Below are positions 4,166-62,939 of a DNA stretch of 64,000 nt, in pieces. The notes below the pieces were generated by a model that was not told the origin of the DNA, did no database searches, and saw only the letters and a program-made list of their open reading frames with translations. A program made the position numbers and the translations under genes. Origin of the DNA: a virus; IMG/VR virus record IMGVR_UViG_3300026488_000015, positions 82,526 through 146,525 of that record, one strand, 5' to 3'. How positions within the stretch are numbered: position 1 is the first letter of the stretch; each line of letters opens with the position of its first letter.

Positions 4166-4173
4166 TATTTATA
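4166..4173 (-). promoter_or_regulatory. T4-type late promoter TATAAATA
   Basis: Exact match about 20 nt upstream of the internal-protein/endolysin operon. Confidence 0.75.
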
Positions 4174-4450
4174 GGAGATAATGAGGGTGGAATTCTATGA
4201 GTATTTTTTTGAATGAGGGGAATTTTATTAGGTTATGCAATGATGTGTATATGTATTCTCCAGTGAATACGCCTTCGTTTGAGTATTCTTTAGTGTGGAA
4301 TGAACCCCAAGAGTCTTCGTTTAAGTAGTTTTTAAGGATATTTTCGTATGAGTGGTATTTTATTTCATTCTGCCATTTTATAGAGAAAATATGATGGACT
4401 CTTCCTTCCAAATCAATCACGAAAGGAAAACCAAAAGAGTCTTTATTCAT
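4169..4450 (-). CDS. Hypothetical protein with C-terminal PHxxL tag
   Basis: Ends FHPHYLL. Confidence 0.65.
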   Translation of the reverse strand: MNKDSFGFPFVIDLEGRVHHIFSIKWQNEIKYHSYENILKNYLNEDSWGSFHTKEYSNEGVFTGEYIYTSLHNLIKFPSFKKILIEFHPHYLL

Positions 4451-4919
4451 AACGAGATTCGCCGTTCCGTTCTACTAGGATAGGTACTGGTGCTATGTCA
4501 AAATTGAATGCACAAGTGTCACCACATTTGTTGCAAGTGTATCTTACTAAATCTGTATCAGTACAATCTGCTTGGTCGTTGAGTGGGTCGCCACATCCGG
4601 GGCATTTACATACGCAACCACACTGCTCTAGTATTTTTTCTTCTCTACTCTTCTCTAGGCGGAACAGCTTTCTTATGATTCCTAATAACATATTTGCCTC
4701 CTTCTTTGACTAAATATTTATTTAATATTGTTGTTTCTTGTACTGAAATATTTCTCCAATGGCCACCTTGACTATCGTATAAAAATTCTTGGATTGTAGA
4801 ACATTTCTCGCATATTCTATGTGATGGATAAAAACTATCGTATGTTTCATCAAGATATGTCCTTGAGATTACTTGATTTACTTCCACCCATTTATGGAAT
4901 TGATACCATTTACATTTCA

Positions 4920-5273
4920 TTATTCTAGCCAATCAGATATTAAATCAGTTGTTTTATCTGTATTTTCTGCTTTGAAATAACAGATTGCCTCTACCGTTGT
5001 ATTCTCAAATTCTACCTCGATAACGCCTCTAGTATATAAATCAGGCACATCTTCAAATCTATCCAATTCAATAAGCTGTTCTTCGGTTACTTCGTACAGT
5101 TCGCCTTGAATAATATTGCCTTCTTGAGGTCTATCCTCTAAGAAAGGGAAATACCAACGGCTCTTATACATAGGGTAAGGTACTGTCGTTTCGCAAGGAA
5201 ACAAGAACTTGCTATGGTTGTAGTGGTTATTTCTGCAACCTTGTTTGAGTGTTCCATATACAAATAATTTCAT
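4920..5273 (-). CDS. Gamma-glutamylcyclotransferase (GGCT/AIG2-like) family protein
   Basis: LFVYGTLK, GELYEV, LDRFE..P.LY motifs. Confidence 0.88.
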   Translation of the reverse strand: MKLFVYGTLKQGCRNNHYNHSKFLFPCETTVPYPMYKSRWYFPFLEDRPQEGNIIQGELYEVTEEQLIELDRFEDVPDLYTRGVIEVEFENTTVEAICYFKAENTDKTTDLISDWLE

Positions 5274-5323
5274 TTTATTCCTTAATTTTTAATATAATAT
5301 TATAACATAAAGTAGCTTAATGG

Positions 5324-5881
5324 CTACTTTATTTCCGAAAGAATGACTTCATTTACTTTTTTATTGTACTCTGAATCAGTCTTGTAGTGTTTTGCTACTA
5401 TAAATCCATTATAACGGTGTTCTGTCGTGATAGTAAATTTTGAAACATCAGTCATCTTAGCTAATCGTTGTGCTTCTCCTTTAGGGAAGAAAAAGGTAAC
5501 AGTTTTATTGCCATCGATTACTGCATCCATATGATACTGTGAACCCATCTGATACACTTTTACTTTTGTTGGTGTATGTACTTCTGTGTAATGCTCAAAA
5601 ATAAAGATTCTAGGAAATAGATAGAATGCTATAGTAAGCACAACAAATGCTATAGATTGCATCATCAATGCTAAAGCCATATTCGCCTGTTCATCTGTTA
5701 TATCAAGCATTTGAGCAAAGATAAAGAAAAATGTAGCAAATACCCAAAACACTAAATTAAATCCAATTACACTTAACCAGATACTATACGAATCACCTAA
5801 ATAAATGTATATACCAAGACCTACGAACCATATCAACGGGTACAGACCAAATCTGTATAAATTTTCTATATTTGTTTTCAT
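5324..5881 (-). CDS. Membrane protein, about 3 TM segments
   Basis: Hydrophobic N-terminal half. Confidence 0.6.
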   Translation of the reverse strand: MKTNIENLYRFGLYPLIWFVGLGIYIYLGDSYSIWLSVIGFNLVFWVFATFFFIFAQMLDITDEQANMALALMMQSIAFVVLTIAFYLFPRIFIFEHYTEVHTPTKVKVYQMGSQYHMDAVIDGNKTVTFFFPKGEAQRLAKMTDVSKFTITTEHRYNGFIVAKHYKTDSEYNKKVNEVILSEIK

Positions 5882-6245
5882 CTTCTTCCTTTCTTCCTTT
5901 TTGTATTAGCCAATCCACAGAAGCTATTTGCTTCAATAACTATTAAGAGTATCATTAATCCAGTAAATATCGAACCTTCTAATAATGACATTTAGTGCTC
6001 TCTTATTTCGAAACCAGGGTTAATGACTCTCATTGCATCTTGTAAGTTATCCAGGATTGCTGCTTTTTTATTAACTTCTGTTACTAAGGCCAAATCTCTT
6101 GGTGAACTGAAACCGTCTTCAGGTACCATATTTTTAATCTCGTGATATAGTTCATTAATCAATCTATAAAGTCGTTGTTCTGTATCCATCTTTCTATCCT
6201 TTGTTTGATATGTAGTATTATAACATAAAATACCTTATAGATACC

Positions 6246-6572
6246 TTAAAGTACTAAATGTGGATTTTCTTTATAATAATCTCTTATGTCAAAAGAGAAC
6301 TCATTCTTAAAGAAATCCTGAAATTCTGGTAGATATTCAGAATATTCATCAAAATATCTATCCGTAAATATTTCTTGGAATGCCTTCGACATTTCGGTAA
6401 TAGGACCAGTACCACCAATATCCATTAATTCTATTCTCGAATACCATAGCGAATAGAACCTATTCAATGAAGGAGATACAATCAGTTCAAAATCAGGAAC
6501 ATCTGAAACATCATTAGCAAAACATTCTTGTATTAATTTATCGGTCTCTTTTGTTTTGCCTTTAAGAATCAT
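6246..6572 (-). CDS. Hypothetical protein with PHxxL tag
   Basis: Ends KENPHLVL. Confidence 0.65.
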   Translation of the reverse strand: MILKGKTKETDKLIQECFANDVSDVPDFELIVSPSLNRFYSLWYSRIELMDIGGTGPITEMSKAFQEIFTDRYFDEYSEYLPEFQDFFKNEFSFDIRDYYKENPHLVL

Positions 6573-6829: not shown

Positions 6830-7990
6830 TTATAGACCCTCTACGAATTCTTTTGCTTTACCTAAAGAGTTGGTTTGTTTTTCGATGTGCTCTTTAACCA
6901 TTTTACCCGCAGTTTGTTCTACATCACGAAATGATGTGTTAAGTGACTTCATAACACCACCAAATAATGGTTCGTTTCTATATTTTAAAGCGAATTCTTT
7001 TCTGTTTTCATCAAAATCTTGGAAATACTTTCTTCTTAGTTCTTTAAAAGCAACCACTTGATGATTATAATAATGAGAAACTTTTTCTTCCATTTCAATA
7101 ATCATATCTTTTTTAGGACCTTGTACTAATTGAGCTATAACATCATCGATATTACCATCTAAGATAGTCTTCACTAAAAGATTCTCTCTAAATGCATCAG
7201 GACCAACTAAACCGTGTAATTGGATATAGTGGTCTGTTTTGATTTTTGCCATTTGACCATCTTCAAAAGTAACTACCCAACCTTCGATGTTTGCTTGTGA
7301 AGTTTCTTTGAGTCTTAATAAACCATCGAGTGCTAGATTTTCATTTGGGAAGATTTTAAAGTCTTCAGTCACATTAATATTGAAAATATCAGCTAAAGAT
7401 TTCATTTCTAATTTCTCTAAATAACTTCCATCATTTCTTCTAACTTGTAGTAGTGTCAAAGCATTAGCTACTTCATAATTTAGTACAATTTGATTTTCAA
7501 ATCCAACTAATTCAAAGATTGGAGTAAAATCTCTAATATTACATTCAGTAATAAAATGTTGGAATTCTCTGCTAGTATCATAGATATTTTGTGCCATTAC
7601 AGCTTGTTCTGAAATAAATGACATTTTAGATTTAGCTCTAACTTTGCTATTCGGGAACTCAACAAAAGAGATAACTGAACCGTCTTCTTTATTTTGTACA
7701 CGAGCAACTTTCTTACCTTGTAAATCTTCTGGCATCCACCCTAAAGTTTGACCATAATTGAAGAATTTTTGCATTAAAAGATTTCTTTTCCAAGTGCCAT
7801 CTGGTTGTTCAATGAATGTTAAACCTCTAAGTTCAAATGCTTCATCATTTGCGAAATCAGAAATTGATGCAAGGCGATAATCATACATTACTACATTAAC
7901 ACCTTCAACTTCTCGTTCTGCTTTAATAAATGCTTCATTACGAGCAACAATTTCATCACATTCTTGTTTTGTTTTTAAATAAAATTTCAT
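6830..7990 (-). CDS. rnlA: RNA ligase 1 (T4 RnlA-like)
   Basis: ELRGLTF, KFFN, KEDGS (motif I), FEL, EGWVV, KIKT..Y. Confidence 0.9.
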   Translation of the reverse strand: MKFYLKTKQECDEIVARNEAFIKAEREVEGVNVVMYDYRLASISDFANDEAFELRGLTFIEQPDGTWKRNLLMQKFFNYGQTLGWMPEDLQGKKVARVQNKEDGSVISFVEFPNSKVRAKSKMSFISEQAVMAQNIYDTSREFQHFITECNIRDFTPIFELVGFENQIVLNYEVANALTLLQVRRNDGSYLEKLEMKSLADIFNINVTEDFKIFPNENLALDGLLRLKETSQANIEGWVVTFEDGQMAKIKTDHYIQLHGLVGPDAFRENLLVKTILDGNIDDVIAQLVQGPKKDMIIEMEEKVSHYYNHQVVAFKELRRKYFQDFDENRKEFALKYRNEPLFGGVMKSLNTSFRDVEQTAGKMVKEHIEKQTNSLGKAKEFVEGL

Positions 7991-12210: not shown

Positions 12211-13026
12211 TTAAAGCAACATTGCTGGTGCTTTCTTACAAACTCGGTCAAAATCAAGATTGATAACATCTTTAATCTTATCTATATAATTCAAGCCCAT
12301 TTTCTCAAAAGATACTAATAGATTGCTTAGATATTTTTGTCTGAATGCTAGTGCTGATATTCTATCTGTAAAAATATAAACAGGCTGTCTATAATTTATT
12401 TTTGAAGAAGGTGTGGATAACGATATTGTTTCTTTACCTGATTCAGTAAATACTTTTAATGCCGTTACTGAATCGGATTGACCTTGAATAAACGAACCAG
12501 TAGCCTTATATACATCAAAACGCCATTCTGAAGGAACGGAGAGTGAGTTCCATTTATATATAGCACCAGGCATAACATAATATGTTTCGCCTCTTTTAAC
12601 ATCATCGAAGATATTTTCTACCATATTTTCTGCATCTTTAAATAATGAATAATCATAACCAATATTCAGCGTCTTAAAAAGATGTCTAGGTATATCAAAG
12701 ACCGTAGTTATTTCTGTGTTTTCTTTCATCTTATCTTTCATATACATTTCATCTTCTGTGGTGCTAATTTTATATTGTTTCTTTAATTGTATAATACGAT
12801 TCATTTGACCTACACTAGAAGTGTGGTTAATATGAATGAATAGTTCAATGAACTTCTTCCATTCAGATGTCTTAGCAGTGAGCTTTGGTGTCCTAGGTTT
12901 CGAACCTAAAGGGTACATTCTAAAACCACAACATTCAGCCCCACCTTTATTTGATTTGAGACAATACAAACATATAGATTTACTATGTGATGCTTTAGGT
13001 TTTCTCAATTCTTCTCTATATTTCAT
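12211..13026 (-). CDS. Hypothetical protein, N-terminal Cys motif and C-terminal tag
   Basis: CLYC...CCG..M; ends KKAPAMLL. Confidence 0.6.
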   Translation of the reverse strand: MKYREELRKPKASHSKSICLYCLKSNKGGAECCGFRMYPLGSKPRTPKLTAKTSEWKKFIELFIHINHTSSVGQMNRIIQLKKQYKISTTEDEMYMKDKMKENTEITTVFDIPRHLFKTLNIGYDYSLFKDAENMVENIFDDVKRGETYYVMPGAIYKWNSLSVPSEWRFDVYKATGSFIQGQSDSVTALKVFTESGKETISLSTPSSKINYRQPVYIFTDRISALAFRQKYLSNLLVSFEKMGLNYIDKIKDVINLDFDRVCKKAPAMLL

Positions 13027-13488: not shown

Positions 13489-14640
13489 TCATAGCACTTT
13501 ACTTTTGAAGTACTGTACTGCTGCTTTACTGATATTTCCGTTAAGAACTTTCGGTTCAAAACCTTCATCTATCATATCTTGTGTATGCTCTTTAACGACA
13601 TCACGCATAACAAGTCCAAGAAATTCTTTCATATCGGTCATACCAATCCTAGTCTCATCGCCATTATGTGTAGCATTAATGATTTCTTGGTACATTTGCT
13701 CTAAACGACCTTCAGTACAAGCAATATCATTAACAAATGCTCTTTTACGGTTTTCGAGTGCTTCATCGACTGGTTTAAGAACCTTAACTTTTCCTGAACC
13801 TTTTGAATGCTCTTCACCTTTTACTTTAAATCTGTACACTTCATCTTTGTAATCGAATGTGAACACATATCCTTCAGCAATATTGTTATCGATACCAAAT
13901 TGTTTACCTACTGGTGAATCTTGTTCAATCTCATCAACTAATTTAATAAGAGTATTTTGCGACATCTTAGCATCATTAAAATCGATTACAATTTCTACTG
14001 TTGGAAAATTCATAATGTTATAGATGTTTTTGTCTTCATTTGAAACCCATTTTGTTCTCATATCATCCGTAATATATGATGGGTCTACAAAACCTTTAGG
14101 TAGAGAAACCGTAGTTTTCGTTTCTAACCATTTAGCACTTTCAGGTATTTCAGCACCATCATTACCAATTTGTGGTTCGATAGGAGATACTTTGAAATAT
14201 TGAAAAATCATACTTCTCTTATCAAGACCAGTCAATGCTGATTTCTTTTGAACATTGCCACCACTCCACTCAAAGTAAACAGAAATGATATGTTTGTTCA
14301 AATCGATACTGTATTCATTAGCAAGACCAAAGATGATTTCTGCCCATTCATTCTCATAAGCATAAGTTTGGAATGCACAACCAGCATTATCTTTTTCTGG
14401 TGTGATAATATTTTTACGAGATTGAACCCAAAAACCATCTGGGATTGAATAACATACAGAGGCATTAGTCCCGTGAATCTTTTCAGAACCAGTTGCTACA
14501 ATAGTAGGCGACAAAGCTGTTCTATCCATAGTTACTTCTTTAGTAACCTCATCGTATGACACAAATTGTGCTTGTCTTTGTAAATTTTTTGTTACTGTGC
14601 TGAATTGGTCAATACTGCCGTATGTGATAAATCTTTTCAT
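13489..14640 (-). CDS. RNA ligase 2 family protein
   Basis: EKIHGTN (motif I), QSRKNII, YFEW, EGYVF, FKVKGEEH. Confidence 0.85.
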   Translation of the reverse strand: MKRFITYGSIDQFSTVTKNLQRQAQFVSYDEVTKEVTMDRTALSPTIVATGSEKIHGTNASVCYSIPDGFWVQSRKNIITPEKDNAGCAFQTYAYENEWAEIIFGLANEYSIDLNKHIISVYFEWSGGNVQKKSALTGLDKRSMIFQYFKVSPIEPQIGNDGAEIPESAKWLETKTTVSLPKGFVDPSYITDDMRTKWVSNEDKNIYNIMNFPTVEIVIDFNDAKMSQNTLIKLVDEIEQDSPVGKQFGIDNNIAEGYVFTFDYKDEVYRFKVKGEEHSKGSGKVKVLKPVDEALENRKRAFVNDIACTEGRLEQMYQEIINATHNGDETRIGMTDMKEFLGLVMRDVVKEHTQDMIDEGFEPKVLNGNISKAAVQYFKSKVL

Positions 14641-16521: not shown

Positions 16522-16755
16522 TTATAGTAAATAGTGAGGTTTATCTGCTAAGATTCTCTTTATGAATGTCTTAGCGTCTTTTTGAGGATAGCCTAATAGT
16601 ATCATCAAGTCAAGACTCGAATCTTCTATCAGCTGTAAGCATTTGTCTGCTGCTTCCTGTTTTGTAGGACTGTATTGTGCATCCCAGTTTTCCATAGCAA
16701 CTTCAAACCACCAGTATTCTTGGTCTTCGTTTGGTTGTAATAATTTGAAATACAT
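16522..16755 (-). CDS. Hypothetical protein with PHxxL tag (probable start 16755)
   Basis: MYFKLLQ...ADKPHYLL; translationally coupled to the upstream membrane ORF. Confidence 0.55.
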   Translation of the reverse strand: MYFKLLQPNEDQEYWWFEVAMENWDAQYSPTKQEAADKCLQLIEDSSLDLMILLGYPQKDAKTFIKRILADKPHYLL

Positions 16756-17316
16756 TATTTTCCGGCCATAGCACCAGAAACGAGTGAAATGAATCCAACA
16801 AAGCCTACACCAATCCAAATCTTGAACGCCGTCCAAGCAGCAAGACCGACGGCCATATCATTTGCACCCCAATTATAGAGAAATGTACCTACACCAATGA
16901 TGTTAGCAAAAACCAATAAAACAATACCGAAAATAAATAATAACGGCATCTGTTATCCTTTCGCTATCGTTACGCATACAGCAACAACAAAAGTCATTAT
17001 TAAGCCGATGTAAAAAATTGTACCATTTGTGCTAAGAGAGTCCCATTTAAAACCTTGTAAATCTATCATATTATTTCCTTTAATTAAATAACGAACCGAG
17101 ACCGTAAATTAATACTGTCACGGTTGAAATGATTACTGCTAGAGCAATCGACACTTTGATTATAATACCAGTAATAAAACCATTAGCTACATCTGCACCA
17201 GTTTCTAAACCAGCTTTAAGCCCATCTTTGGCTAACTCTTTAACATCTACATCTTTTACTGAATCAACAGCAATATCTTTCATTTTCTTAAACATTCATT
17301 TCCTTTTTAACTGAAT

Positions 17317-17759: not shown

Positions 17760-18584
17760 ATGGGATTTACAATCAACACAAACAATAGCGCAAACTTCGC
17801 ACTATTATATGGTAGACAAACACAACAAAAAATAGATAGTTCTTTAGAAAAACTATCAACTGGTCTTAGAATTAACAGAGCAGCAGATGATGCAGCAGGA
17901 ATGGCTATTGCTAATCAGTTAAGAAGCCAATCACAAGGTTTAATTCAAGGTAACAAAAATGCACAAGATGCTATTGGTCTTGTTAAAATAGCAGATGGCG
18001 CAATGGATGAGTATCAAAAAATTCTCGTGACTGCTAGAGATAAATCAGTTCAGGCAGCAAGTGATACGAATTCACCTGAAGCAAGAGCAGTACTCGAAGA
18101 GGAAGTTAAGCAATTACTTCAACAAGCAGATGATATTGCCACTACGACATCATTCAATGGTATTAATCTTTTAGATGGTACATTTACTAGCAAGAAATTT
18201 CAAGTAGGTTCAGAATCTGGCCAAACTATTAGTATGAGTATAGCTAATACTGATATTGCTTCTCAAAATATTGCTGACGCTGATATTGATTTAACTACTC
18301 AAGCAGGTGCTGATGCAGCAATCGTTTCATTGGATGCAGCGATAAAAAGTATTGATGCCGTTAGAAGTGGAATAGGTTCGACTCAAAATGCACTAGAAAG
18401 TAGAGTCCGTGTTAATGAGGCAACTGCCGCAAATGTTATGGCCGCAGAGAGCGCGATTCGTGAAGTTGATTATGCTGCAGAACAAACAGCATTAAATACA
18501 AACACAATCAAGTTACAAGCTAATACATTCGCTTTAGGTAAAGCATTAGAGAACCAACAAATGATTCTTAGTCTGCTTAGATAG
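17760..18584 (+). CDS. Flagellin (short, essentially D0/D1 only)
   Basis: MGFTINTN, LEKLSTGLRINRAADDAAG, FNGINLLDG, FQVG, RSGIGSTQN, AESAIREVDYA. Confidence 0.95.
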   Translation: MGFTINTNNSANFALLYGRQTQQKIDSSLEKLSTGLRINRAADDAAGMAIANQLRSQSQGLIQGNKNAQDAIGLVKIADGAMDEYQKILVTARDKSVQAASDTNSPEARAVLEEEVKQLLQQADDIATTTSFNGINLLDGTFTSKKFQVGSESGQTISMSIANTDIASQNIADADIDLTTQAGADAAIVSLDAAIKSIDAVRSGIGSTQNALESRVRVNEATAANVMAAESAIREVDYAAEQTALNTNTIKLQANTFALGKALENQQMILSLLR

Positions 18585-18936
18585 GGTTTAGGAAAACATC
18601 AACTATGATGATAACCAATCCATAATAGTGTAGAGACTCTTCTTTGGTCTCTGCAATATTACCTTTACCAATAAACAATCCAATATCATTTAAAATATCA
18701 AATAGACCTAGACCTTCAGGTTTAGTATAATCAATCATATCAGACATCAAACGAATACTTTCAAGCATCTTAGATGTAGTTTCAAATTTAATTTTTTGTT
18801 GGGATAATGCTGGTTCTTTTTTCTTTTTTTCTGTTTCTATCTTTATAAGTACAAGAGTTTTTTTCTTTAATAAAGTATAAAATGTTTTTAAGAATTCTTC
18901 TTTACCTAAGACAGCATTTTGTTCGTAAGGGTTCAT
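18577..18936 (-). CDS. FliS-like flagellin chaperone homologue
   Basis: MNPYEQNAV start, four-helix pattern K..SK....I..M...ID.....G..L...L...GN, convergent with the flagellin. Confidence 0.5.
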   Translation of the reverse strand: MNPYEQNAVLGKEEFLKTFYTLLKKKTLVLIKIETEKKKKEPALSQQKIKFETTSKMLESIRLMSDMIDYTKPEGLGLFDILNDIGLFIGKGNIAETKEESLHYYGLVIIIVDVFLNPI

Positions 18937-21601: not shown

Positions 21602-22633
21602 TTATAGCCCTACCATTTTTTCGATTTCAAGTCTGATTCTCTCTAGTGAAAGAATAGTTTCAGAAAGTTCCTCTACGCTCATTGTAACAGTTGGTGCTCT
21701 TTTGACCATTTTGTTGTCGTTTCTTTGAAATTCAAGTGCAGTTTCAACTGCTTCAGATACACCAGGTAGTGTAAGTACAAGTTGTAGTTCTGTGATTCTC
21801 TTTGAATCGTTTTGTACTCTCTCACGAACAGCTTGAAGTGATTTCTTATCTGCTGTGAATCCTCTACCAACGAATCTCATAAATCTAAATGCTCTAAGAG
21901 GGTCTTCTTCAAGACGGTCTTTTGGTTTACCAACAAATCTAAGTGTTTTTGTCTTGATGTCATCTATGAAACATTCAGTAGGGTCGATAATCAGTTCAGA
22001 TGTAAGATTAAAGAAACCAGCACCGATAGTGAAATCTCTACGATTACCATCTTCTTCAATAGTACCTGCTTCTCCACCCGCATTATCCTTATCTTTCCTA
22101 AAATTAGCAATCTCGAAATCTTGGTTGTTCTTAGAAGCAATAAGTACAAGAAATTGTTTACCTACATTGTTTACTTTAAACCCATTTTCTTTGAAAGTTT
22201 TTTCTAGTGTATCCATATCTGTGTCCGTACAAAAATCAAAATCGTTTGGTACTTTATTGATAAGAAAATCTCTTACAGCACCACCAACAAGACAAGCTTC
22301 AGTAGAAAGACCTTTAAGAATCTCTGCTACTTCTTCTGCTTGAGCAAAATGACCATTAAATTCTTCTGAAATAACAGCACTCATACCGATATTTTCATCA
22401 ACCATTTCGCACATTGTATCTGATAGAGGTGTAAATGTATCTGGAAAATCACCAAACATAAACTCTGAAATATCGTGTAGAATATAAAACATTTGTGTAT
22501 CATAATCATCAGCAAGTGATAGATTTACTTCAACTTCCCATTTCTCAGGAGGGTTTGATAGTTTAATCAAATCTGTATCTTGGAAGTTTCTAAAGAACAT
22601 TTCGTTGAATTTCTTTGTTAGTTTGTTTCTCAT
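21602..22633 (-). CDS. tRNA nucleotidyltransferase/poly(A) polymerase family (class II head domain)
   Basis: LVGGAVRD, DFDFCT, RRDFTI, EDPLRAFR. Confidence 0.88.
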   Translation of the reverse strand: MRNKLTKKFNEMFFRNFQDTDLIKLSNPPEKWEVEVNLSLADDYDTQMFYILHDISEFMFGDFPDTFTPLSDTMCEMVDENIGMSAVISEEFNGHFAQAEEVAEILKGLSTEACLVGGAVRDFLINKVPNDFDFCTDTDMDTLEKTFKENGFKVNNVGKQFLVLIASKNNQDFEIANFRKDKDNAGGEAGTIEEDGNRRDFTIGAGFFNLTSELIIDPTECFIDDIKTKTLRFVGKPKDRLEEDPLRAFRFMRFVGRGFTADKKSLQAVRERVQNDSKRITELQLVLTLPGVSEAVETALEFQRNDNKMVKRAPTVTMSVEELSETILSLERIRLEIEKMVGL

Positions 22634-23793: not shown

Positions 23794-24030
23794 TTAAAGC
23801 ATATCTGCAGGATAATTCTCTTGAATATATCCCATCAGCTCTGGTGGAATATTGGTTGCTAATGAATTTTCGGTTGTTATTCCAACCAATATCATTTCGC
23901 CTTCGTATCTAGGATACATTTCTGATACTGCATCATTAAAATCTTTTTGCATAGCTGTTCTATGGTATTCATCTAATATTTGGTGGAGATATGTTTCTGC
24001 TATTTCTGTGAGTTTAACTGCTAAATCCAC
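23794..24030 (-). CDS. Hypothetical protein with C-terminal tag
   Basis: Ends ENYPADML. Confidence 0.6.
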   Translation of the reverse strand: MDLAVKLTEIAETYLHQILDEYHRTAMQKDFNDAVSEMYPRYEGEMILVGITTENSLATNIPPELMGYIQENYPADML

Positions 24031-43382: not shown

Positions 43383-43772
43383 TTATATGAATAAATGTGG
43401 GTCTGATTCTTTGAGTGCCTCTACTTCTACATTACTAAAAGTGTAACGAAATATAATCGTTTCTGTGTACGGGTCGAGAACATCTGCAGAGGGAGTAGCC
43501 TGTTCGTTTAATAATGTTAAATGTTTTGCTAGAGGGAAATCTTCGTGCAATTGGTGATATGCACGGCGACTGGCTTCTTCACGCTGTTCCACTGAGCAAT
43601 CCGTAACGATACTGACATTATAGGCTAAGAATCTTATATATGCTTTATCATTAAATATCACATTTGTAGTACTACGGTTTTTTGAGAAATATCTTTTTTC
43701 TAAATAAATAAATTCACTTAGAGATTGAGGTTTTTCTTCTATGAAACCATACGGGTTTATAGCGTCAAGCAT
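43383..43772 (-). CDS. Hypothetical protein with PHLFI tag
   Basis: Ends ESDPHLFI. Confidence 0.65.
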   Translation of the reverse strand: MLDAINPYGFIEEKPQSLSEFIYLEKRYFSKNRSTTNVIFNDKAYIRFLAYNVSIVTDCSVEQREEASRRAYHQLHEDFPLAKHLTLLNEQATPSADVLDPYTETIIFRYTFSNVEVEALKESDPHLFI

Positions 43773-44584
43773 AAAAAGTCACCTGGATTATTTTCTTTAA
43801 AATCTTCTAAAAGAACATCACCAGTAATACTAAGCATTTCATTAACGATTGCTGTTTTCGAGACCGTGTGGAATTCGAAATATTCACAACCACCATACCA
43901 ATCACTTTCAGAATCATCTTCAACCTCTACAAGATGAGAATATCTATCAAAAATATCAGAGTCATCGAGACCCGTGAGTTTATATACGAAATCGAAAAAT
44001 TCATAGAAATTATCTCTTGCTATCTTAGGTTCTTCATCAGGTTCAGTAGGAGTATATGTAGTATTTTCATCATCCCAGCAAGTAGCATAAGTGCTTCCTC
44101 CAGCATCCCAATGTTCTGAATTCAGTATATCTGAACCCGATTCATCTAGGTGGACTAATATACTAGGAACTAATAATCCAGAACCTCCAGTGATGCACTT
44201 TTCTGCACTTATATGAGAATCAAATCTTATATTTTTTATTGAATGCGTAGAGAGTTTTGTGCGTTCTCCCGTACTGAATCTATATCTATCATTTGCTAAA
44301 CAAGTCTCTAAGGGTGTATCGAATTTTATGAATTTGCATCTGTTAAGCGGAAGAAGATTAGTTAGCAATAATCCAGTTTTGTCTGGAAATAATCCGTCAA
44401 TAAGAACTGTGCTATCTTCAGAATAAGGAAGAGATTTTAGAGTTTCTGCTAATGCTTCTAAATCATTATGGTTGAACATAAATTCATCAGCATCAAATCT
44501 GAATACATTTGTTTTTAATGCTTGTTCTTTAGACCAGTATGTTTTTCCTGAACCAGGTAAACCGATTAATATTTCGTAATTCAT
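43757..44584 (-). CDS. P-loop kinase (polynucleotide-kinase-like) with C-terminal extension
   Basis: LIGLPGSGKT, VLIDG, CLANDR.R. Confidence 0.7.
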   Translation of the reverse strand: MNYEILIGLPGSGKTYWSKEQALKTNVFRFDADEFMFNHNDLEALAETLKSLPYSEDSTVLIDGLFPDKTGLLLTNLLPLNRCKFIKFDTPLETCLANDRYRFSTGERTKLSTHSIKNIRFDSHISAEKCITGGSGLLVPSILVHLDESGSDILNSEHWDAGGSTYATCWDDENTTYTPTEPDEEPKIARDNFYEFFDFVYKLTGLDDSDIFDRYSHLVEVEDDSESDWYGGCEYFEFHTVSKTAIVNEMLSITGDVLLEDFKENNPGDFLCLTL

Positions 44585-44605: not shown

Positions 44606-45745
44606 TTAAACTAGTTTGATTTTTTTCACTATTCTCGCGAACACTTCTTTTGATGTAGGCTCTTTAACCCAAGTGTTGAAGTTCTTGCTATCAGTTTTCT
44701 TGATGTTCGTGATGAACGCTGTAGCAACTTCGATTGGACAACCATAACATAAGTGATTCAGTAAAGTCCACTTACCTTTCTCTAATGACAATGCATAAAC
44801 TTCCTCAACCAAGTTGTTAATTACTGGCTGTTCTTGGTTGTCTAATAGTTTAGCAATCAAACCGTAAGATGCATCTAAGTTTTGTGCATTCGTGTTAGTT
44901 TTCTTAACCACAGACTTAACTGCTCTAGTAATATCATCAACACCAATCATATCAGAATGATTCTTATAAAAATTTAAGAATTCAGTACCTACAGCACGAC
45001 CTAAACGACCTCTTAAAAGAGTGTAGAGTGCTGGATTATCTTTACCTGAGTTACCTAAATTATCAAGCAATGTTGAAACTTTTGCCCAAGCTCTTGGTGA
45101 TGTACCGTGTGAACTATCTTCAGGTGAGAAGTGAATCATCTTCGGGTTCTTAGCAATGTATTTTAAAATAACATTATTTACACCTGATTTACGGGCCCAA
45201 ATTAGCCATTCTTCGGCATCAGGCTTAATCTCGATTGGTCCAACGAATCTGTCAATAAGTGCATCATCCATTTCATTCGTTTGATAATCACCAGTTGGAT
45301 TACCTGCAGCGATAATCATCGTTTCTACACCGTTATATGTAGGCAATTGATGCTCGTGAATTTGTTTATCGAGAACTAACTGCAATGCTGCTTGTAAAAC
45401 ATCTGATTGAGCACGATTAATTTCATCTAAGAATAAAGAACAAGCTTTACCTGCTTTGTTTGCATCATACATTCTCTTCAACCAAGAAGGCGTTGACCAG
45501 TACATAATTTCTTCTGATTTCGTTTCGTACTTATCTAAAGAAACTTCTTCATTTTTCGTGTTGTACGGGATACCAATAAGGTCTCCAACTTCCATCTGTG
45601 AAAGGAATAATGTTTCATTATGAACACCTGCGTCTAAAGCCCATCTTTCAGCTCTCTGTGATTTACCAATACCGTGTACTCCCTCTATATAAACACAATC
45701 GTTTGACGCTTGACATACATTAAATACTTCTTCTAAGTGATTCAT
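44606..45745 (-). CDS. MoxR-type AAA+ ATPase
   Basis: GVHGIGKS, GDLIGIP, LFLDEINRA, AAGNP, ALIDRF, SPRAW. Confidence 0.88.
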   Translation of the reverse strand: MNHLEEVFNVCQASNDCVYIEGVHGIGKSQRAERWALDAGVHNETLFLSQMEVGDLIGIPYNTKNEEVSLDKYETKSEEIMYWSTPSWLKRMYDANKAGKACSLFLDEINRAQSDVLQAALQLVLDKQIHEHQLPTYNGVETMIIAAGNPTGDYQTNEMDDALIDRFVGPIEIKPDAEEWLIWARKSGVNNVILKYIAKNPKMIHFSPEDSSHGTSPRAWAKVSTLLDNLGNSGKDNPALYTLLRGRLGRAVGTEFLNFYKNHSDMIGVDDITRAVKSVVKKTNTNAQNLDASYGLIAKLLDNQEQPVINNLVEEVYALSLEKGKWTLLNHLCYGCPIEVATAFITNIKKTDSKNFNTWVKEPTSKEVFARIVKKIKLV

Positions 45746-47284: not shown

Positions 47285-47515
47285 CTATAAAAATAGATGA
47301 GGTTCTTCATTAAATACTCTCTCGTAATCTTCTTTGAGAAATGAATATGAGATTTCCCATATACCACCTTCTTTACCATTAGATACACGATTCGTACATT
47401 TAATGTGCTCACACCAGGGATGTGCTTCGATAAGATTTTCGGGTAAGCACATACTCCGTTTATCTGAAGAGATAACAACGGTTATTTCCTCTAGTAGAGG
47501 CTGTTTACCAGGCAT
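47285..47515 (-). CDS. Hypothetical protein with PHLFL tag
   Basis: Ends NEEPHLFL. Confidence 0.6.
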   Translation of the reverse strand: MPGKQPLLEEITVVISSDKRSMCLPENLIEAHPWCEHIKCTNRVSNGKEGGIWEISYSFLKEDYERVFNEEPHLFL

Positions 47516-48324: not shown

Positions 48325-48762
48325 TTATAGAAACCAGTGTGTTCTATCACTAAGCAGTTCGTGCTTAGTGGTAAGAGAAATTCTCGTGAAGAAAAGTTCT
48401 TTTTTGTTCTTTATAGAACTTATCATATGCTCTGAAAGAATCATATCTTTGTCTAAAATAAAGTTCAAAGGTGCAATCACAATCATACAATATTCTCTAC
48501 CTGATTCATCGGTATGAAATAATCTGCTACTGTAAATCCCATAGATGGCGTGTTCTCTACCATCTGATTCATAATCTTGGAGTTTTTTGAACTCCTTTAT
48601 GTTTATTCTGACTATACAGTTTTGTTCATAGTTGTTTTGTTCTTCGAGTTTTTTAAGTTCTTTTGGGCTCATATCATATACTATCATCCTCATAAGAAAA
48701 CATCCGGGCAATGATGTAGAGCTAATGAGATAATATCTATCTCGTGCTCTCCGTCTTCCCAA
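48325..48762 (-). CDS. Hypothetical protein with tag variant; start probably about 48690
   Basis: Ends DRTHWFL. Confidence 0.55.
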   Translation of the reverse strand: MGRRRARDRYYLISSTSLPGCFLMRMIVYDMSPKELKKLEEQNNYEQNCIVRINIKEFKKLQDYESDGREHAIYGIYSSRLFHTDESGREYCMIVIAPLNFILDKDMILSEHMISSIKNKKELFFTRISLTTKHELLSDRTHWFL

Positions 48763-49025
48763 ATAAAGAGAACATTTTCGTATGTATCTGTTGAGTCTTT
48801 TTGTAGATGAGCCTTACAAGCTGACCGCACACACTCTTTAAATGTTTTATCTGTAATATGTGTGTATCTATCGGGTTTTTGTTCTCTGTGAAGGCTATGA
48901 GGTGTTATTGCTATTTGATGGACGCAATATAATCCATCCTGGTCAAACCAGACATCAAATGTCTCGTTACTTTTGGAGGTCGTAGTCGCCAAAAGAATAC
49001 CCACCACAAAAATCGATAAAATCAT
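48690..49025 (-). CDS. Hypothetical protein with C-terminal tag
   Basis: Ends HHCPDVFL. Confidence 0.55.
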   Translation of the reverse strand: MILSIFVVGILLATTTSKSNETFDVWFDQDGLYCVHQIAITPHSLHREQKPDRYTHITDKTFKECVRSACKAHLQKDSTDTYENVLFIWEDGEHEIDIISLALHHCPDVFL

Positions 49026-50261: not shown

Positions 50262-50522
50262 TTAAACGAATAAGTGAGGCGACTCTTCTCTAATTTCATC
50301 GATTTCATCTATATAGAATGAAAATTCGCAATCGTAGGTCTCACCATTCTGGTTCTCATCAATCGTGTGCTCGAAGCAATCTAAGTGCTCAAGATAAGGG
50401 TACTCTTTGAGTAATTCCATCACACAGCCCTTAAGCGTGTTACTGTAAGACACTAGGTCATTAACTGATGCTTTTAGCTTAAAAGTTTTTGTTTCGTATG
50501 TCCAGTCTGCTTCAATTTTCAT
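50262..50522 (-). CDS. Hypothetical protein with PHLFV tag
   Basis: Ends EESPHLFV. Confidence 0.65.
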   Translation of the reverse strand: MKIEADWTYETKTFKLKASVNDLVSYSNTLKGCVMELLKEYPYLEHLDCFEHTIDENQNGETYDCEFSFYIDEIDEIREESPHLFV

Positions 50523-50688: not shown

Positions 50689-51135
50689 CTAGTAATCCTT
50701 CAATGCTCTAGCTGTGTCGATATTTTGCTGTTTCTCTTTAAGCGAATTTCGTTTATCGTAATCTCTTTTACCACGACCAACAGCTATCTCAAGCTTAATC
50801 GAATCTGAAGAATCAGGTTGGAAAATCTTCAAAGGGACGATAGTGATACCGTTTTCTTGTGTAGCCACATCGAGCTCTCTGATTTCTTTCTTTGTGAGTA
50901 ATAATTTTCGTGGTCTTACCTCATCGAAATGACCATAAGCAAAATTCTCTGGTTTAGAAATGTGTGCTTGCATTAAGAATGCTTCACCGTTCGAAATCTT
51001 TACATAAGCTTCTTTCAATGATATTCTACTATCACGAATTGCTTTAACCTCAGGTCCTTCTAATACCATCCCAGCAATGTAGTGGTCTGTTAAATGATAA
51101 GAGTGTGTTGCTTTTCTGTTTCTATTGTATTCCAT
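50689..51135 (-). CDS. smpB: SsrA-binding protein SmpB
   Basis: NRKA.H.Y, AGMVLEGPEVKAIR, R.RKLLL.KKEI, G.TIVPL, GKR.YDKR. Confidence 0.93.
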   Translation of the reverse strand: MEYNRNRKATHSYHLTDHYIAGMVLEGPEVKAIRDSRISLKEAYVKISNGEAFLMQAHISKPENFAYGHFDEVRPRKLLLTKKEIRELDVATQENGITIVPLKIFQPDSSDSIKLEIAVGRGKRDYDKRNSLKEKQQNIDTARALKDY

Positions 51136-51424: not shown

Positions 51425-51637
51425 TTATAAAAATAAATGCGGAGTATCTACTAACAGACGAGTTTTGTTTATACAATGATTTGAAGATTTCTTCTTATTA
51501 TAACCACTAGAATTCTTTACAGTAATAATATTTCCTCTATCAGGAACTTTATGCACAACACCTTCATCCATTTCACCTGATGTACTGAATATTACAACAT
51601 CACCTACATTGATTTCCTGATTAAATCTATCTAACAT
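51425..51637 (-). CDS. Small SH3/KOW-like protein with PHLFL tag
   Basis: DRFNQEINVGDVV; ends VDTPHLFL. Confidence 0.65.
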   Translation of the reverse strand: MLDRFNQEINVGDVVIFSTSGEMDEGVVHKVPDRGNIITVKNSSGYNKKKSSNHCINKTRLLVDTPHLFL

Positions 51638-51952: not shown

Positions 51953-52219
51953 TTAAAGCAGTAAATCAGGTCTATTTTCATAGATTTCTTCGAGGACTAT
52001 AAATCTTTCGGGAATTTTTACTGTCGTAGTTGCATCGTAACCATCAAATTTTGAAGCTTGTATCTCAATACCATTCTTATTGAACCCTAAAATTGTACAC
52101 TTTCTACCGACATTTCCTTTAGCAGAATTCATATAGAAACACCTTTGACCGACCTTTAGCTCTTGACCAAGATAGTCATATAATGGTTCAGGTAAAATCT
52201 CTGTATCTAATTCGTTCAT
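51953..52219 (-). CDS. Small SH3/KOW-like protein with C-terminal tag
   Basis: DYLGQELKVGQ; ends ENRPDLLL. Confidence 0.65.
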   Translation of the reverse strand: MNELDTEILPEPLYDYLGQELKVGQRCFYMNSAKGNVGRKCTILGFNKNGIEIQASKFDGYDATTTVKIPERFIVLEEIYENRPDLLL

Positions 52220-52220: not shown

Positions 52221-52727
52221 TTATAATCCTAGGTGTGGTTTTTCTGTAATGAGTTTTGTATATCGTTCTGTGTCTATAACCATTGTATCATAATGTTCTT
52301 TTGTTCTCTCTCTAAAAGTCTCTGAATTAGAGAAAGCAAATACGAAAGCCTCTTCTTCTAACACAAAAGAGTTATCATATAATAGCTTAATAGAATATTC
52401 AGCATATTCTTCTTTCTTAGCGGAAAAAGTATATGCTGAATTCCATTGTTTTTCGCTAATATTGTACTCTTCTATCTCAATATGAATATAAGGTCTACCC
52501 CAAACTATATTTTTTACTCTATGTTTTATTACAGATGCATTATAGGCATTATCACTATACAAGTGCACTACATAAAATTCATCATCAGGAACAACTTCAA
52601 ATACACTAAGATGCTGTTTTATTTCTTCTAGTGTTAATGGGATAGAATGCGTAGTAATAAGTATCTCTGGTTCATCAACTGCATCAAGCAGGGCATCTAT
52701 CTCTGATTGAGATAATATACTTGCCAT
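52221..52727 (-). CDS. Protein with FliM-like N-terminal CheY-binding peptide and PHxxL tag
   Basis: Starts MASILSQSEIDALL; ends TEKPHLGL. Confidence 0.7.
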   Translation of the reverse strand: MASILSQSEIDALLDAVDEPEILITTHSIPLTLEEIKQHLSVFEVVPDDEFYVVHLYSDNAYNASVIKHRVKNIVWGRPYIHIEIEEYNISEKQWNSAYTFSAKKEEYAEYSIKLLYDNSFVLEEEAFVFAFSNSETFRERTKEHYDTMVIDTERYTKLITEKPHLGL

Positions 52728-53642: not shown

Positions 53643-54518
53643 TTAAATTTCTGAGGTGTCAAATTCTTGACCTTTTTTGACCAGTCCAGCGAAACCATCT
53701 TCTTGAACCATTTGATTTACTTCATTGTATGTTTTACTTCCTAACATATAATGATACAGATACATTTTTGCTCTTGTATGGCTATCAAGTTCTAATAGTT
53801 GTCTATACTGAGCGTGAACACTATTTGGATACTCAGCGAACTCGCAATCGTGAAATATAATATCACTTTGTTGAAAATATGTAAGCATCTGATTAGGCGC
53901 GAACTGTGAGTCTCCACTAATAAAAACAGTCTTATCATCATCTTCAAACATTAAACCATAGCTAGGTACAATAGAACGATTATCTACAATATGAACTGTT
54001 TGAATGGGTCTGATTTCTGTACCGTAGAACTCAAAAGTATCATTATTACTCATATACTCTGTATCAAAATATGTCTCTAATGTATTTGTTTGACCTTGAA
54101 TAGATTCTAAACCACCTCTCCAAGTTTTGTCCCAACCATTAAATAAGATAGATTTATGAGCATATAGATTAGGTCTCATTGAACCGAATTCAGTCTTACC
54201 GAAATTAAATACTTCAAAATATGTCTTGAAAGCAATATACTCGATACCACCAGCGTGGTCTCCGTGCAGATGTGAAATGTAAATACTATCTAAATCTTGA
54301 GGTTTTAAACCTGCTTCATCAAGAGCATCAGGAATCGTTGTACCTACATCATAAAGAAGATGTTTTGTTTCTATATTTCTTTGAATCATTCCAGGCATAC
54401 CTGCTGGAGTGTCAATCTTTTTTCTTACTTCAGTATCTTTACTAAGTAAAATATTACTCTGATAGTTTTCTTTCCCTAATACGAAAGCACTACCACTTCC
54501 TAAAAATTTAATCTTCAT
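53643..54518 (-). CDS. Metallo-beta-lactamase-fold cyclic nucleotide phosphodiesterase, Apyc1-like
   Basis: LGSGSAF, HLHGDHAGG, W....RGGL, SGDS, FHDC, VHA...LL, YLYHY. Confidence 0.75.
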   Translation of the reverse strand: MKIKFLGSGSAFVLGKENYQSNILLSKDTEVRKKIDTPAGMPGMIQRNIETKHLLYDVGTTIPDALDEAGLKPQDLDSIYISHLHGDHAGGIEYIAFKTYFEVFNFGKTEFGSMRPNLYAHKSILFNGWDKTWRGGLESIQGQTNTLETYFDTEYMSNNDTFEFYGTEIRPIQTVHIVDNRSIVPSYGLMFEDDDKTVFISGDSQFAPNQMLTYFQQSDIIFHDCEFAEYPNSVHAQYRQLLELDSHTRAKMYLYHYMLGSKTYNEVNQMVQEDGFAGLVKKGQEFDTSEI

Positions 54519-56687: not shown

Positions 56688-56745
56688 TTGAGTCCTTTGT
56701 TTGTTGATTAGTATTATAACACATTAGTACTTAATACTGTGAAGC

Positions 56746-60725: not shown

Positions 60726-61367
60726 TTACTTTCCTACGACTTTATCTGCGAGACCCATTTCAATTGCTTCTTCAGCAGATAACCATCTATCTCTTGAAGT
60801 AAATTCTGTAAATGATTCTAAATTAAATTCAGTCATTCTTGTTTTCTCTAAGATGATTGCTTTACCATTTTCTGTGATTTTGTCTTTTGAATTATCAAAC
60901 ATAATACTATGTAATCTTTCTTGAAGAAATTCTGTTTCTTTCATATCGATTCTTTGGTCGTGTACTGTACCACCCGTACCACTTGAAACTGAATGAATCA
61001 TTACTCTTGCTTCTGGTGTAACTGCTCTAATACCAGTACCACTCGATAATAAGAAAGCACCCATTGATGCCGCCATACCTGAAACGATAATGTTTACTTT
61101 ACATTTTAGTGAGTTAATAGTATCAAAGATGGCAAGACCATCATAAACTGACCCACCTGGAGAGTTTACATATAAATTAATATCTTTTGTATTGTCTACA
61201 CTATCTAAGTACATAAGTTGCATATTTACAAAGTAAGCCATTTCAGAAGAAACGCCTCCATTTAAAAAAACTATTCTATCTTGAATTAATCTACTTGGTA
61301 AATCAAACTGTGTTTTCGCTCTTCCATCATTCTCTATTACCGATGGTAAAAATGTCATTGTATTCAT
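60726..61367 (-). CDS. clpP: ATP-dependent Clp protease proteolytic subunit
   Basis: SRL..DRIVFL, YVNSPGGSV, AASMGAFLL, MIH, RDRWLSAEEA...GLAD (Ser-His-Asp triad present). Confidence 0.93.
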   Translation of the reverse strand: MNTMTFLPSVIENDGRAKTQFDLPSRLIQDRIVFLNGGVSSEMAYFVNMQLMYLDSVDNTKDINLYVNSPGGSVYDGLAIFDTINSLKCKVNIIVSGMAASMGAFLLSSGTGIRAVTPEARVMIHSVSSGTGGTVHDQRIDMKETEFLQERLHSIMFDNSKDKITENGKAIILEKTRMTEFNLESFTEFTSRDRWLSAEEAIEMGLADKVVGK

Positions 61368-61561
61368 ATCTTTCCTTTAATTTGTTGTTTGTTGAAGTAG
61401 TATTATAACATACCAGGACTTAATTTTCTAATCTTTCTCGATTGTCGTGTCACCGTTCGTACTTTTGTTGTTTTTGATTTCTGTCTTCACTTCATCAGCA
61501 GCAGACACGAATGCTGTGATAACGATAAACATAACCAAAAATAATATAACCATAAAAAATA

Positions 61562-62086
61562 CTAGCATCTTTCAATTTCTCCTCTCTTGTTTTTCTTGTT
61601 TACTAATATACCGTCTGCTAGATTAAACATATCTTCTATATTTGTGAGCTTGTCTACAATAGTGCTTGACAACCCGTATTCAGAAGATGATATAGCTTCT
61701 AGCTTATCAGAAGTATCTTGCGTTTCTACGCCTTGTTTAAGGATGAAAAATTCATCACCTGATGTCCTATATATTTCAGAACAAGGGAAGGTCGATTGTA
61801 GTTCGCTGGCTACATCCTTGATGAACTCATCACCCGCTAGAAAACCTCTTTCTCTGTTGATAGCGTGTAAACCATTCAAATCAACAATACCTAACATAAA
61901 ATCACGACTAAAATACACATACTCGTGCCACAGCTCATCCAATCTACGATTAAAATCCAAACGACCTTTGAGGTTAGTCATTGAACAATATTTGTATTCT
62001 TTAATCTGAATCTTAAGCTTTTCATTCTCTGCCTGTAGCCTATGCATTTCGTCCATCATTTCTTCGTTAGTCATTTCGCTATTCAT
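61562..62086 (-). CDS. GGDEF-domain protein (SGDEF variant) with N-terminal coiled coil
   Basis: DLNGL..IN...G...GD, YRTSGDEF, AD. Confidence 0.8.
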   Translation of the reverse strand: MNSEMTNEEMMDEMHRLQAENEKLKIQIKEYKYCSMTNLKGRLDFNRRLDELWHEYVYFSRDFMLGIVDLNGLHAINRERGFLAGDEFIKDVASELQSTFPCSEIYRTSGDEFFILKQGVETQDTSDKLEAISSSEYGLSSTIVDKLTNIEDMFNLADGILVNKKNKRGEIERC

Positions 62087-62289
62087 TAGAGAGTTTTACC
62101 ACACCAAGAACAACTAAACGAATAATGCCATTTACCCGTTGTCGGTGAGATATTTTTATAATGAATATATAATTCATTAGTATCACAAGATTTACAACCA
62201 GTACCCCATACATAATTTTTCCATATAAGGAGCGTTTCTGCTTCGATAATACTAATTTTTGTGTTTATTTGTTTAAACATATTTTCCCC

Positions 62290-62598
62290 TTATAAGAATA
62301 AATGCGGTTTTCTTTCCTTGATATTAGCTAATCTGTCTAGCAACTTCGACCAGTTTATATATTGGTCGCTTAGTTTTTTGATGGCATCCCTTGTGAAACG
62401 GACCTCTGCATCATCTAATGACAAATAAATGTCTTTGTGTTTAAATAAGTATTCTTTTTTATTTATAGCAATCCTGCAAGTCTTCGGCATTACCTTGATA
62501 ATCTCTCCTTCGAGAATCGTATCTGGTTTTGCTACCCAAACGGTGATACCACCAAAATCGCTCTTATTGTGGTATGAAGCAAGACTTTTTAATCTCAT
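62290..62598 (-). CDS. Hypothetical protein with PHLFL tag
   Basis: Ends ERKPHLFL. Confidence 0.65.
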   Translation of the reverse strand: MRLKSLASYHNKSDFGGITVWVAKPDTILEGEIIKVMPKTCRIAINKKEYLFKHKDIYLSLDDAEVRFTRDAIKKLSDQYINWSKLLDRLANIKERKPHLFL

Positions 62599-62939
62599 AG
62601 AAGCTCATCCGGGAAATTGTCTATAATGTATCTCATTTTTGTGATATGTTTTTGTACTCTCTTATCTGATTTACCATATTTTACAAATCTCTCTGATTGA
62701 ATATACTGAGCAAGAATATTAGTTTGTTTAATGTTCTCTGATTCGCATCCTTCTTCTATACTAAAATTTCTTATAGTGAATGGGTAATGAGAATCTATCA
62801 TAAAACCTGGGACATATTTCTTTGTCAAAAAGTTTGTAGCACTTGAACCAGGTAGTATAATTTCTTGGCATAGATTGCTCATTACTATCCTTCGTGGTCT
62901 ATGTTTTTTCATTACATCTCCAACAACCTTTTGTACCAA
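62595..62939 (-). CDS. Hypothetical protein with C-terminal tag; start uncertain
   Basis: Ends DNFPDELL. Confidence 0.55.
   Translation of the reverse strand: MVQKVVGDVMKKHRPRRIVMSNLCQEIILPGSSATNFLTKKYVPGFMIDSHYPFTIRNFSIEEGCESENIKQTNILAQYIQSERFVKYGKSDKRVQKHITKMRYIIDNFPDELL

Follow-up and report, generated by a model that had tools for sequence, protein, structure and literature searches.

The DNA considered here is a stretch of 64,000 nucleotides (hereafter the window), which corresponds to bases 82,526-146,525 of the IMG/VR virus record IMGVR_UViG_3300026488_000015 (146,525 bp, 33% GC), and our subject is a five-residue C-terminal tail of the PHLFL type, hereafter the tag, that is shared by many small proteins encoded there. 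Because the same sequence sits inside a 331,651-bp metagenome contig in ENA (ERZ27262635:k141_314747), which contains the whole record, the record is an internal fragment of a jumbo phage; its CheckV completeness is 68%, and the head and replication genes are located outside it. About half of the contig has been seen, by way of exact-protein look-ups, and the census of tags covers ~166 kb.

A tag shared by many small proteins

Twenty-five open reading frames (ORFs) of the window with PHLFL-like ends had been listed by a first-pass annotation made from the letters alone; all 25 of the 25 exist on the minus strand at the left coordinates and with the C-terminal pentapeptides given there, and the three near-misses are as it described them. 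They are listed here with three candidate readers of the tag, in window positions; labels beginning with L or P are our own handles for other sequences.

Tagged ORFs
4169-4450, minus strand, 93 aa, Pro-His type tail
6246-6572, minus strand, 108 aa, Pro-His type
12211-13026, minus strand, 271 aa, Pro-Ala type
16522-16836, minus strand, 104 aa, Pro-His type
23794-24030, minus strand, 78 aa, Pro-Ala type
25490-25933, minus strand, 147 aa, Pro-Asp type; tail of the L009 ortholog of Pro-His type
25943-26218, minus strand, 91 aa, Pro-His type
32417-32794, minus strand, 125 aa, Pro-Ala type
37727-37978, minus strand, 83 aa, canonical tail; tag kept by the L011 ortholog
40314-40694, minus strand, 126 aa; tail identical in the L011 ortholog
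40682-40981, minus strand, 99 aa, Pro-Gly-Trp variant; tag kept in the orthologs of L009, L010, L011 and P0114
40991-41335, minus strand, 114 aa; tag kept in the L009 ortholog, Pro-His lost in the L011 ortholog
41323-41682, minus strand, 119 aa; in the L009 ortholog the motif is followed by 3 extra residues
43048-43365, minus strand, 105 aa; tail kept in L009 and L011
43383-43772, minus strand, 129 aa; tail kept in L009, L010 and L011
46954-47202, minus strand, 82 aa, canonical tail
47285-47515, minus strand, 76 aa, canonical tail
48690-49025, minus strand, 111 aa, Pro-Asp type; same variant in the L009 ortholog
50262-50522, minus strand, 86 aa
51148-51414, minus strand, 88 aa, canonical tail
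51425-51637, minus strand, 70 aa, canonical tail
51953-52219, minus strand, 88 aa, Pro-Asp type
52221-52727, minus strand, 168 aa, FliM-like N-terminal peptide
62290-62598, minus strand, 102 aa, canonical tail
62595-62939, minus strand, 114 aa, Pro-Asp type

Near-misses
48325-48762, minus strand, Thr in place of Pro at -5
37981-38454, minus strand, motif followed by three extra residues; extensions likewise in the L010 and L011 orthologs
43757-44584, minus strand, P-loop kinase-like with a weak AAA_33 match; longer hydrophobic tail, kept in L009 and L011

Candidate readers
44606-45745, minus strand, MoxR-type AAA+ ATPase (AAA_5)
41684-42994, minus strand, DUF2201_N metallopeptidase-like and VWA protein, flanked by six tagged genes
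60726-61367, minus strand, ClpP homolog whose Ser, His and Asp motifs align with those of ClpPs of known structure; may read the tag or be an effector

Counted over the 146.5-kb record against shuffled termini, as the first-pass annotation had suggested, such ends are strongly enriched: Pro-x-x-[FLIVMG]-[LIV]-stop closes 27 of the 231 non-overlapping gene calls (one of the 27 being a plus-strand ORF that displaces the tagged gene at 25943 in this call set), compared with a mean of 0.48 and a maximum of 4 in 2000 within-protein shuffles. An unbiased positional scan of the termini picked out Pro at -5, with 33 proteins where 5.9 are expected (p = 2e-15), His at -4, with 23 where 3.7 are expected (p = 6e-12), and likewise Leu at -1. 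The strict Pro-His form stands at 19 of the 231 termini and at 5 of ~46,800 internal positions, and the DNA pattern for Pro-His-x-x-hydrophobic-TAA has 19 matches on the coding strand, compared with 1-3 for a control pattern.

When 30 tails are aligned, Pro is present at -5 in 29 and His at -4 in 21, and the residue is hydrophobic at -3 in 87% and at -1 in 100%. Conservation extends upstream of the tag to -13, with hydrophobic residues at -13, -10 and -9 and acidic ones at -8 and -7, and is gone before -15, which agrees with the short charged helix that had been noticed ahead of the tag. The first 12 kb of the record contribute four further tagged genes and the flanking DNA of the same contig five, so that at least 34 are present in the DNA seen, and Leu is the last residue in 30 of these 34. 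The tagged proteins are 70 to 271 residues long, soluble and mostly acidic, the same as their untagged neighbours.

Conservation of the tag and diversity of the bodies

Relatives of the phage were found in metagenomes by searching with the VWA/DUF2201 protein, which is itself flanked by tagged genes. The contigs on which this protein is 84%, 73% and 52% identical are syntenic with the window and have 6, 11 and 8 tags, respectively, on small genes; among more distant relatives, the one at 44% has a single loose match and the one at 41% has none. Over 18 ortholog pairs, identity amounts to 74% in the tag, 39% in the adjacent helix and 35% in the body. The 80 tag codons of 16 ortholog pairs comprise 31 identical codons, 31 synonymous changes and 18 amino-acid changes, and in the same comparison the codons of the adjacent helix give 33, 25 and 86. 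Since the tag codons differ synonymously while the residues stay, selection acts on the peptide. The earlier proposal of selection on the peptide and not of a DNA repeat is therefore upheld: half of the conserved tag residues are recoded between orthologs, the tag codons vary synonymously between genes, and the DNA 3' of the stop is without conservation among the tagged genes. Unusual variants of the tag are retained by orthologs of the same protein, and because such protein-specific forms persist, the tags have been inherited vertically and kept one by one, not homogenised by gene conversion.

The most distant tag-bearing relative (GC 41%) differs in the last residue, which is Ile in 8 of its 8 tags and Leu in most of the tags of the present phage (Fisher p = 4e-6). 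Ile codons are AT-rich and this relative is the more GC-rich one, so base composition predicts the opposite shift. Because the last residue has changed from Leu to Ile in concert across unrelated proteins, one shared receptor is favoured, and this concerted change is the strongest argument in the sequences that points to a common receptor over independent intramolecular roles.

In the nearest cultured phages the DNA pattern of the tag occurs at control level, and 273 genes of 11 unrelated viral loci contain one loose match. The pattern is also at control level in four genomes of the Campylobacterales, to which the host may belong (see below), where no real ORF ends in the tag, and mimicry of a host signal is disfavoured on this ground. 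Judged from the cultured phages, viral loci and Campylobacterales genomes compared, the tag is restricted to one clade. A profile of the tail returned only the phage's own proteins from 5.8 billion proteins and two repeat proteins from 1.84 billion representatives, and these searches are uninformative about the range of the tag because the scores of so short a motif fall under the thresholds. One protein picked up by the profile (P0005, a database protein of 438 aa) consists of ~50-residue repeats, each ending in a helix and then Pro-Asp/His-Trp-Phe, and its likeness to the tag is probably due to chance.

The bodies that precede the tag had been described as unrelated, and no relation among them is detectable: BLASTP among the tagged proteins with the tails removed gave a best E of 0.006, hhalign of 406 pairs with the last 14 residues trimmed and orthologs added gave a highest probability of 7.9%, and Pfam gave no match above threshold for any of 30 tagged proteins. 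No recognisable enzyme domain is present in any tagged protein, as had also been claimed. AlphaFold2 (AF2) models were obtained for two families (ORFs 40682 and 43383) from alignments of 4-5 sequences, with pLDDT ~80 and pTM 0.72, and their predicted topologies differ, the body being mostly beta in ORF 40682 and alpha/beta in ORF 43383. Both bodies are followed by a C-terminal helix at about -16 to -7 and then by a short turn that holds the tag. Neither model has a match in PDB at E <= 0.001 by Foldseek, and for ORF 43383 the ESM Atlas gave nothing beyond leads of low confidence.

Two tagged proteins give an indication of what the bodies may do. The N-terminus of ORF 52221 is a close copy of the FliM N-terminal peptide, which in E. 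coli binds phosphorylated CheY; both the protein and its ortholog have matches to the FliM equivalog model (positions 1-18 and 1-33), with E-values that are weak, as expected for 18 residues. Between ORF 52221 and its L009 ortholog, recognisable conservation is confined to this peptide (78% over 18 residues) and to the C-terminal tag. A sequence search of PDB with the FliM-like peptide gave no match in a library that excludes chains under 20 residues. The other protein, encoded upstream of the window (record positions 7116-7493), is L7/L12-like at a level below the family cut-offs. The anatomy of ORF 52221 would fit that of an adaptor, and the two cases taken together fit proteins that join a putative target-binding module to a constant docking tail at the opposite end. 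The first-pass annotation had supposed a variable target-binding body joined to a constant tail; ORF 52221 lends support to this arrangement, and the binding itself is predicted from sequence likeness.

The phage, its promoters and its other shared ends

By its PHROG and Pfam matches the phage is a T4-like myovirus, with genes for a large terminase (TerL), tail sheath, gp15-like protein, gp46/47, gp44 clamp loader, gp55-like sigma factor, gp23, gp13, a prohead protease of the T4 type (Peptidase_S77), UvsX, a gp41-like helicase and a family B DNA polymerase. The cultured phages nearest by TerL are a Vibrio phage group (38% identity) and Campylobacter phages (31-33%); no close relative was found among GenBank phages by megablast and tblastn, and no close kin of TerL or ClpP in IMG/VR. 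The sole sequencing run listed as containing the DNA is a DNA run of a hydrothermal vent metagenome, which may be its source; no RNA run was among the matches. A complete flagellin gene lies on the minority strand of the window (17760-18584, plus strand), beside a convergent ORF of 119 aa (18577-18936, minus strand) that has no Pfam match. Since this flagellin is closest (51-52%) to those of metagenome-assembled genomes of Campylobacterales and Sulfurimonadaceae, a host among the Campylobacterales is a reasonable guess.

Most operons of the region, including those with tagged genes, as well as the tail sheath gene, are preceded by a conserved promoter cassette of ~45 nt, which is of sigma-70 type and is composed of two TTAAG-like boxes, an extended -10 TGTTATAAT and a conserved start region. 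About 45 copies are present in the record and ~35 on the minus strand of the window (e.g. 6225, 8568, 23773, 46157 and 50241). The T4 late-promoter octamer, with 29 coding-strand copies, precedes structural genes and ankyrin genes that carry another tail, and none of the copies drives a tagged gene. Because sigma-70-type cassettes and not late octamers stand before the tagged genes, we infer that these are expressed early. The start region of the cassette holds a near-copy of the late octamer. At three of the tagged or near-miss genes, the codon of the terminal Leu together with the stop makes up the octamer of the gene that follows (window 4173, 37731 and 48329), and 10 of 28 tagged genes are directly followed by a cassette.

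Other ends are shared among proteins of this phage. Acidic residues followed by a terminal Trp close the DNA polymerase (L088:15088-18012, 974 aa), the gp55-like sigma factor (L001:18767-20000), a SLOG/YAcAr protein (L001:14621-15007) and the product of L001:15001-15297, the latter two being small proteins encoded between gp46 and the clamp loader; this acidic-Trp tail is probably the clamp-docking tail of the phage. The position of gp45 is occupied by a protein of 189 aa (L001:14041-14610, phrog_12320). A third tail, Lys-Leu-Gly-Lys-Tyr-Ala-Asp-Leu-Leu, is found at or near the C-terminus of at least six proteins, several of them with ankyrin repeats (window 28836-29345, 29345-29668, 29668-30633 and 37196-37711; L005:6126-6674; L045:15021-15431; a variant in L009:515-1129); two of their genes are directly behind T4-type late promoters and one adjoins the terminase gene. 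The last 12 residues are nearly identical in a 1012-aa protein of the window (33026-36064, plus strand), a 2296-aa fibre-like protein (L003:465-7355, minus strand) and a protein of a relative (L046:11621-12370, minus strand), and may represent a shared C-terminal module of fibres.

The window also contains anti-defence genes for Acb1 (anti-CBASS, E = 3e-31) and Apyc1 (anti-Pycsar, E = 5e-23), at 2676-3161 and 53643-54518. A set for RNA repair and translation consists of two RNA ligases, an enzyme of the CCA-adding or poly(A) polymerase type, RlaP, a kinase-like protein and SmpB (6830-7990, 13489-14640, 21602-22633, 36061-37116, 43757-44584 and 50689-51135).

Possible roles of the tag and likeness to known systems

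With slightly better than even confidence, we regard the tail as a portable docking tag that is recognised by one receptor common to all carriers. At least 34 small soluble proteins would each consist of a body and an amphipathic helix, followed by Pro, His (or Asp, Ala, Ser, Gly or Glu), two hydrophobic residues, Leu or Ile and the free carboxylate. The helix would pack on the body whatever the fold of the latter, and the last few residues would be read by one receptor, probably by accommodation of the terminal hydrophobic side chains and carboxylate in a pocket. The bodies would be differing effector or target-binding modules, such as the mimic of the FliM N-terminal peptide and the L7/L12-like domain, and the tag would bring many effectors, perhaps with what they hold, to a single hub. 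As regards the single hub proposed in the first-pass annotation, a common reader is favoured by the Leu-to-Ile shift, and the hubs considered below are candidates for it.

Several points weigh against docking on a common receptor. No receptor was found in the part of the genome seen, and the homology profiles are shallow (1-5 sequences), which limits the power of the homology tests. The tail in the AF2 models is not a floppy end but a defined short helical turn (block means of pLDDT ~82-83), so the tag could pack on its own body, and no flexible linker stands ahead of it, unlike in most tether motifs. Of the small proteins encoded in these operons, about three quarters lack the tag. In a few families 2-4 extra residues follow the motif, or Pro-His is lost, and since some families extend past the motif, the free carboxylate is not needed everywhere.

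The same predicted conformation of the tail (pLDDT ~82), the tolerance of extra residues and the regular hydrophobic pattern at -13, -10, -9, -3, -2 and -1 would suit a structural C-terminal cap in one hyper-diverged family of paralogs, in which helix and tail pack on their own core, and large phages commonly show lineage-specific expansions of small proteins that evolve fast. We consider this explanation unlikely, since the 406 profile-profile pairs are without similarity of the bodies, the two AF2 models differ in topology, the lengths vary widely, the Pro-His tag is far better kept than the hydrophobic helix positions (74% against 39% identity), and a concerted Leu-to-Ile shift is not expected of independent intramolecular packing. 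Much less probable is a signal for packaging, by which the tail would direct proteins into the prohead and the prohead protease would cut at a hydrophobic-x-Glu site that often lies at -10 to -8. The tails are hydrophobic at -10 in 87% and have Glu or Asp at -8 in 18 of 30, like the Leu/Ile-x-Glu site of the T4 prohead protease; the phage has a protease of this type, and a library of injected effectors is biologically sensible. The promoter types weigh against such a role, since none of the 29 late motifs drives a tagged gene and the tagged genes lie behind sigma-70-type cassettes, and the capsid-targeting sequence known from T4 is N-terminal, while the tag is C-terminal.

We give very little credence to a sliding-clamp tail, by which the tagged proteins would ride on or block a gp45-like clamp of the phage or the beta clamp of the host. 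In T4, gp45 is the docking site for the C-termini of the polymerase gp43 and of the late factors gp55 and gp33, and the present phage is T4-like with a clamp loader of the gp44 type; however, its polymerase, gp55-like sigma factor and two neighbours in the replication module share the acidic-Trp tail instead, no DNA-enzyme domain is present in the tagged proteins, and the Gln of the bacterial clamp motif is missing from the tag. The least probable explanation is an element acting at the level of nucleic acid or translation, such as a recombination scar, a promoter or terminator over the stop, or a nascent-peptide signal at termination. The cassette directly after ten tagged genes, the late octamer at three Leu-plus-stop ends and the SmpB gene speak for it. 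Against it, the codons are free to differ, half of the conserved ortholog residues are recoded and the downstream DNA is unconserved; 10 of 28 tagged genes before a cassette is about the rough share for all genes by our own estimate, and no tmRNA, tRNA or Rfam family was found in the phage DNA searched.

If the tag is indeed a docking tag, several hubs can be considered. ClpP, SmpB, MoxR (AAA_5) and the VWA/DUF2201 protein, as named in the first-pass annotation, were confirmed by Pfam, while neither Pfam nor PHROG supports the label "SspB-like" that it gave to ORF 37981. One route would lead to a protease or unfoldase: the tag would act as a degron or adaptor tether, possibly by way of the phage ClpP together with an AAA+ partner from the host or by direct docking in the surface pockets of ClpP; this is conceivable but doubtful. 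The ClpP is apparently active, as judged from its aligned catalytic motifs; in the half of the genome seen, neither an unfoldase gene nor a peptide-binding domain turned up. The MoxR and VWA-metallopeptidase pair, embedded among tagged genes, is a still less likely hub. Its HExxH and MIDAS residues, which belong to the VWA/DUF2201 protein, are invariant in 44 homologs, and the order of MoxR, kinase-like, two tagged, VWA/DUF2201 and four tagged genes is kept in all three relatives, although collinearity there extends over the entire region in any case. In more distant phages the pair is found without any tag or with a single loose match. Prediction of a complex from DUF2201/VWA, MoxR and a 42-residue tail alignment gave a score of 0.00 and "no answer", which is no evidence either way. 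The sliding clamp, also a candidate of the first-pass annotation, is disfavoured by the different tail of the polymerase and sigma factor, and as the hub it is highly improbable. The rest of our expectation falls to some other hub, of host or phage, or to a receptor for localisation.

A bolder proposal, which we think improbable, is host takeover by dozens of bifunctional adaptors, whose bodies would bind different host targets and whose tails would plug into one phage-controlled machine. The targets would include phosphorylated CheY through the FliM peptide mimic and translation factors through the L7/L12-like domain, among others, and the engine would be ClpP with an unfoldase or the MoxR/VWA-metallopeptidase pair. 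If this were true, one engine would capture, remodel or destroy many host proteins, and the adaptors would amount to a library for targeted degradation of natural origin. Should all the tags be read by one receptor, a single pull-down would expose a node central to host takeover by this uncultured vent phage, and functional handles would be obtained on more than 30 orphan proteins. Being short (five residues), portable and apparently co-evolving with its reader, the tag could also serve as an orthogonal docking or degradation tag.

Terminal docking peptides shared between proteins are already a known kind of signal, as in replisome clients and degrons, while the motif, the carriers and the scale are new here. 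We know of no description of a tag on about a quarter of the small early-operon proteins of a phage, all of unknown family, and a literature search on the exact motif, on shared C-terminal motifs of phage early proteins and on DUF2201 returned nothing relevant. The tails of T4 gp43, gp55 and gp33 that dock on the ring-shaped gp45 are alike in being a short hydrophobic extreme C-terminus on unrelated proteins; however, the tag here is carried not by enzymes of DNA or transcription but by 34 or more small proteins that belong to no known family, and the motif is Pro-His-hydrophobic-hydrophobic-Leu. The bacterial beta-clamp motif, of the Gln-Leu-[Ser/Asp]-Leu-Phe type, differs in that the tag has Pro and not Gln at -5.

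In degrons and tethers of AAA+ proteases (ssrA, MuA-type tails and the ClpX-binding SspB tail) and in the HbYX tails of proteasome activators, terminal residues and the carboxylate are likewise read by one proteolytic machine, but the sequence of the tag matches none of these and no flexible linker is present. The ssrA-type degron of ClpX ends in Ala-Ala on an unstructured tail, whereas the tag ends in Phe or Leu and then Leu or Ile, directly after a predicted helix. The SspB adaptor has its tether on a long flexible linker behind the SspB fold; here the helix ends 6 residues before the C-terminus in the AF2 models, and ORF 37981 and all tagged ORFs are without a Pfam or PHROG match. The hydrophobic-x-hydrophobic-COOH pattern of class II PDZ ligands is shared by the tag as a sequence pattern, and no PDZ domain was found among the ~70 phage proteins scanned with Pfam. 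PTS1, KDEL and the T4 capsid-targeting sequence resemble the proposed tag in that one short terminal peptide is placed on many unrelated cargo proteins for recognition by a single receptor, and the T4 signal differs in being N-terminal on late proteins, the tagged genes having no late promoters. Recognition of a carboxylate by the MIDAS of a VWA domain is known from factor B, which binds the C-terminal carboxylate of C3b, and CbbQ-CbbO is an example of a MoxR-VWA remodelling pair. The present phage is similar to such systems in having a MoxR ATPase and a VWA protein with intact MIDAS in a conserved operon with six tagged genes, and it differs from them in that the pair is kept by more distant phages practically without the tag.

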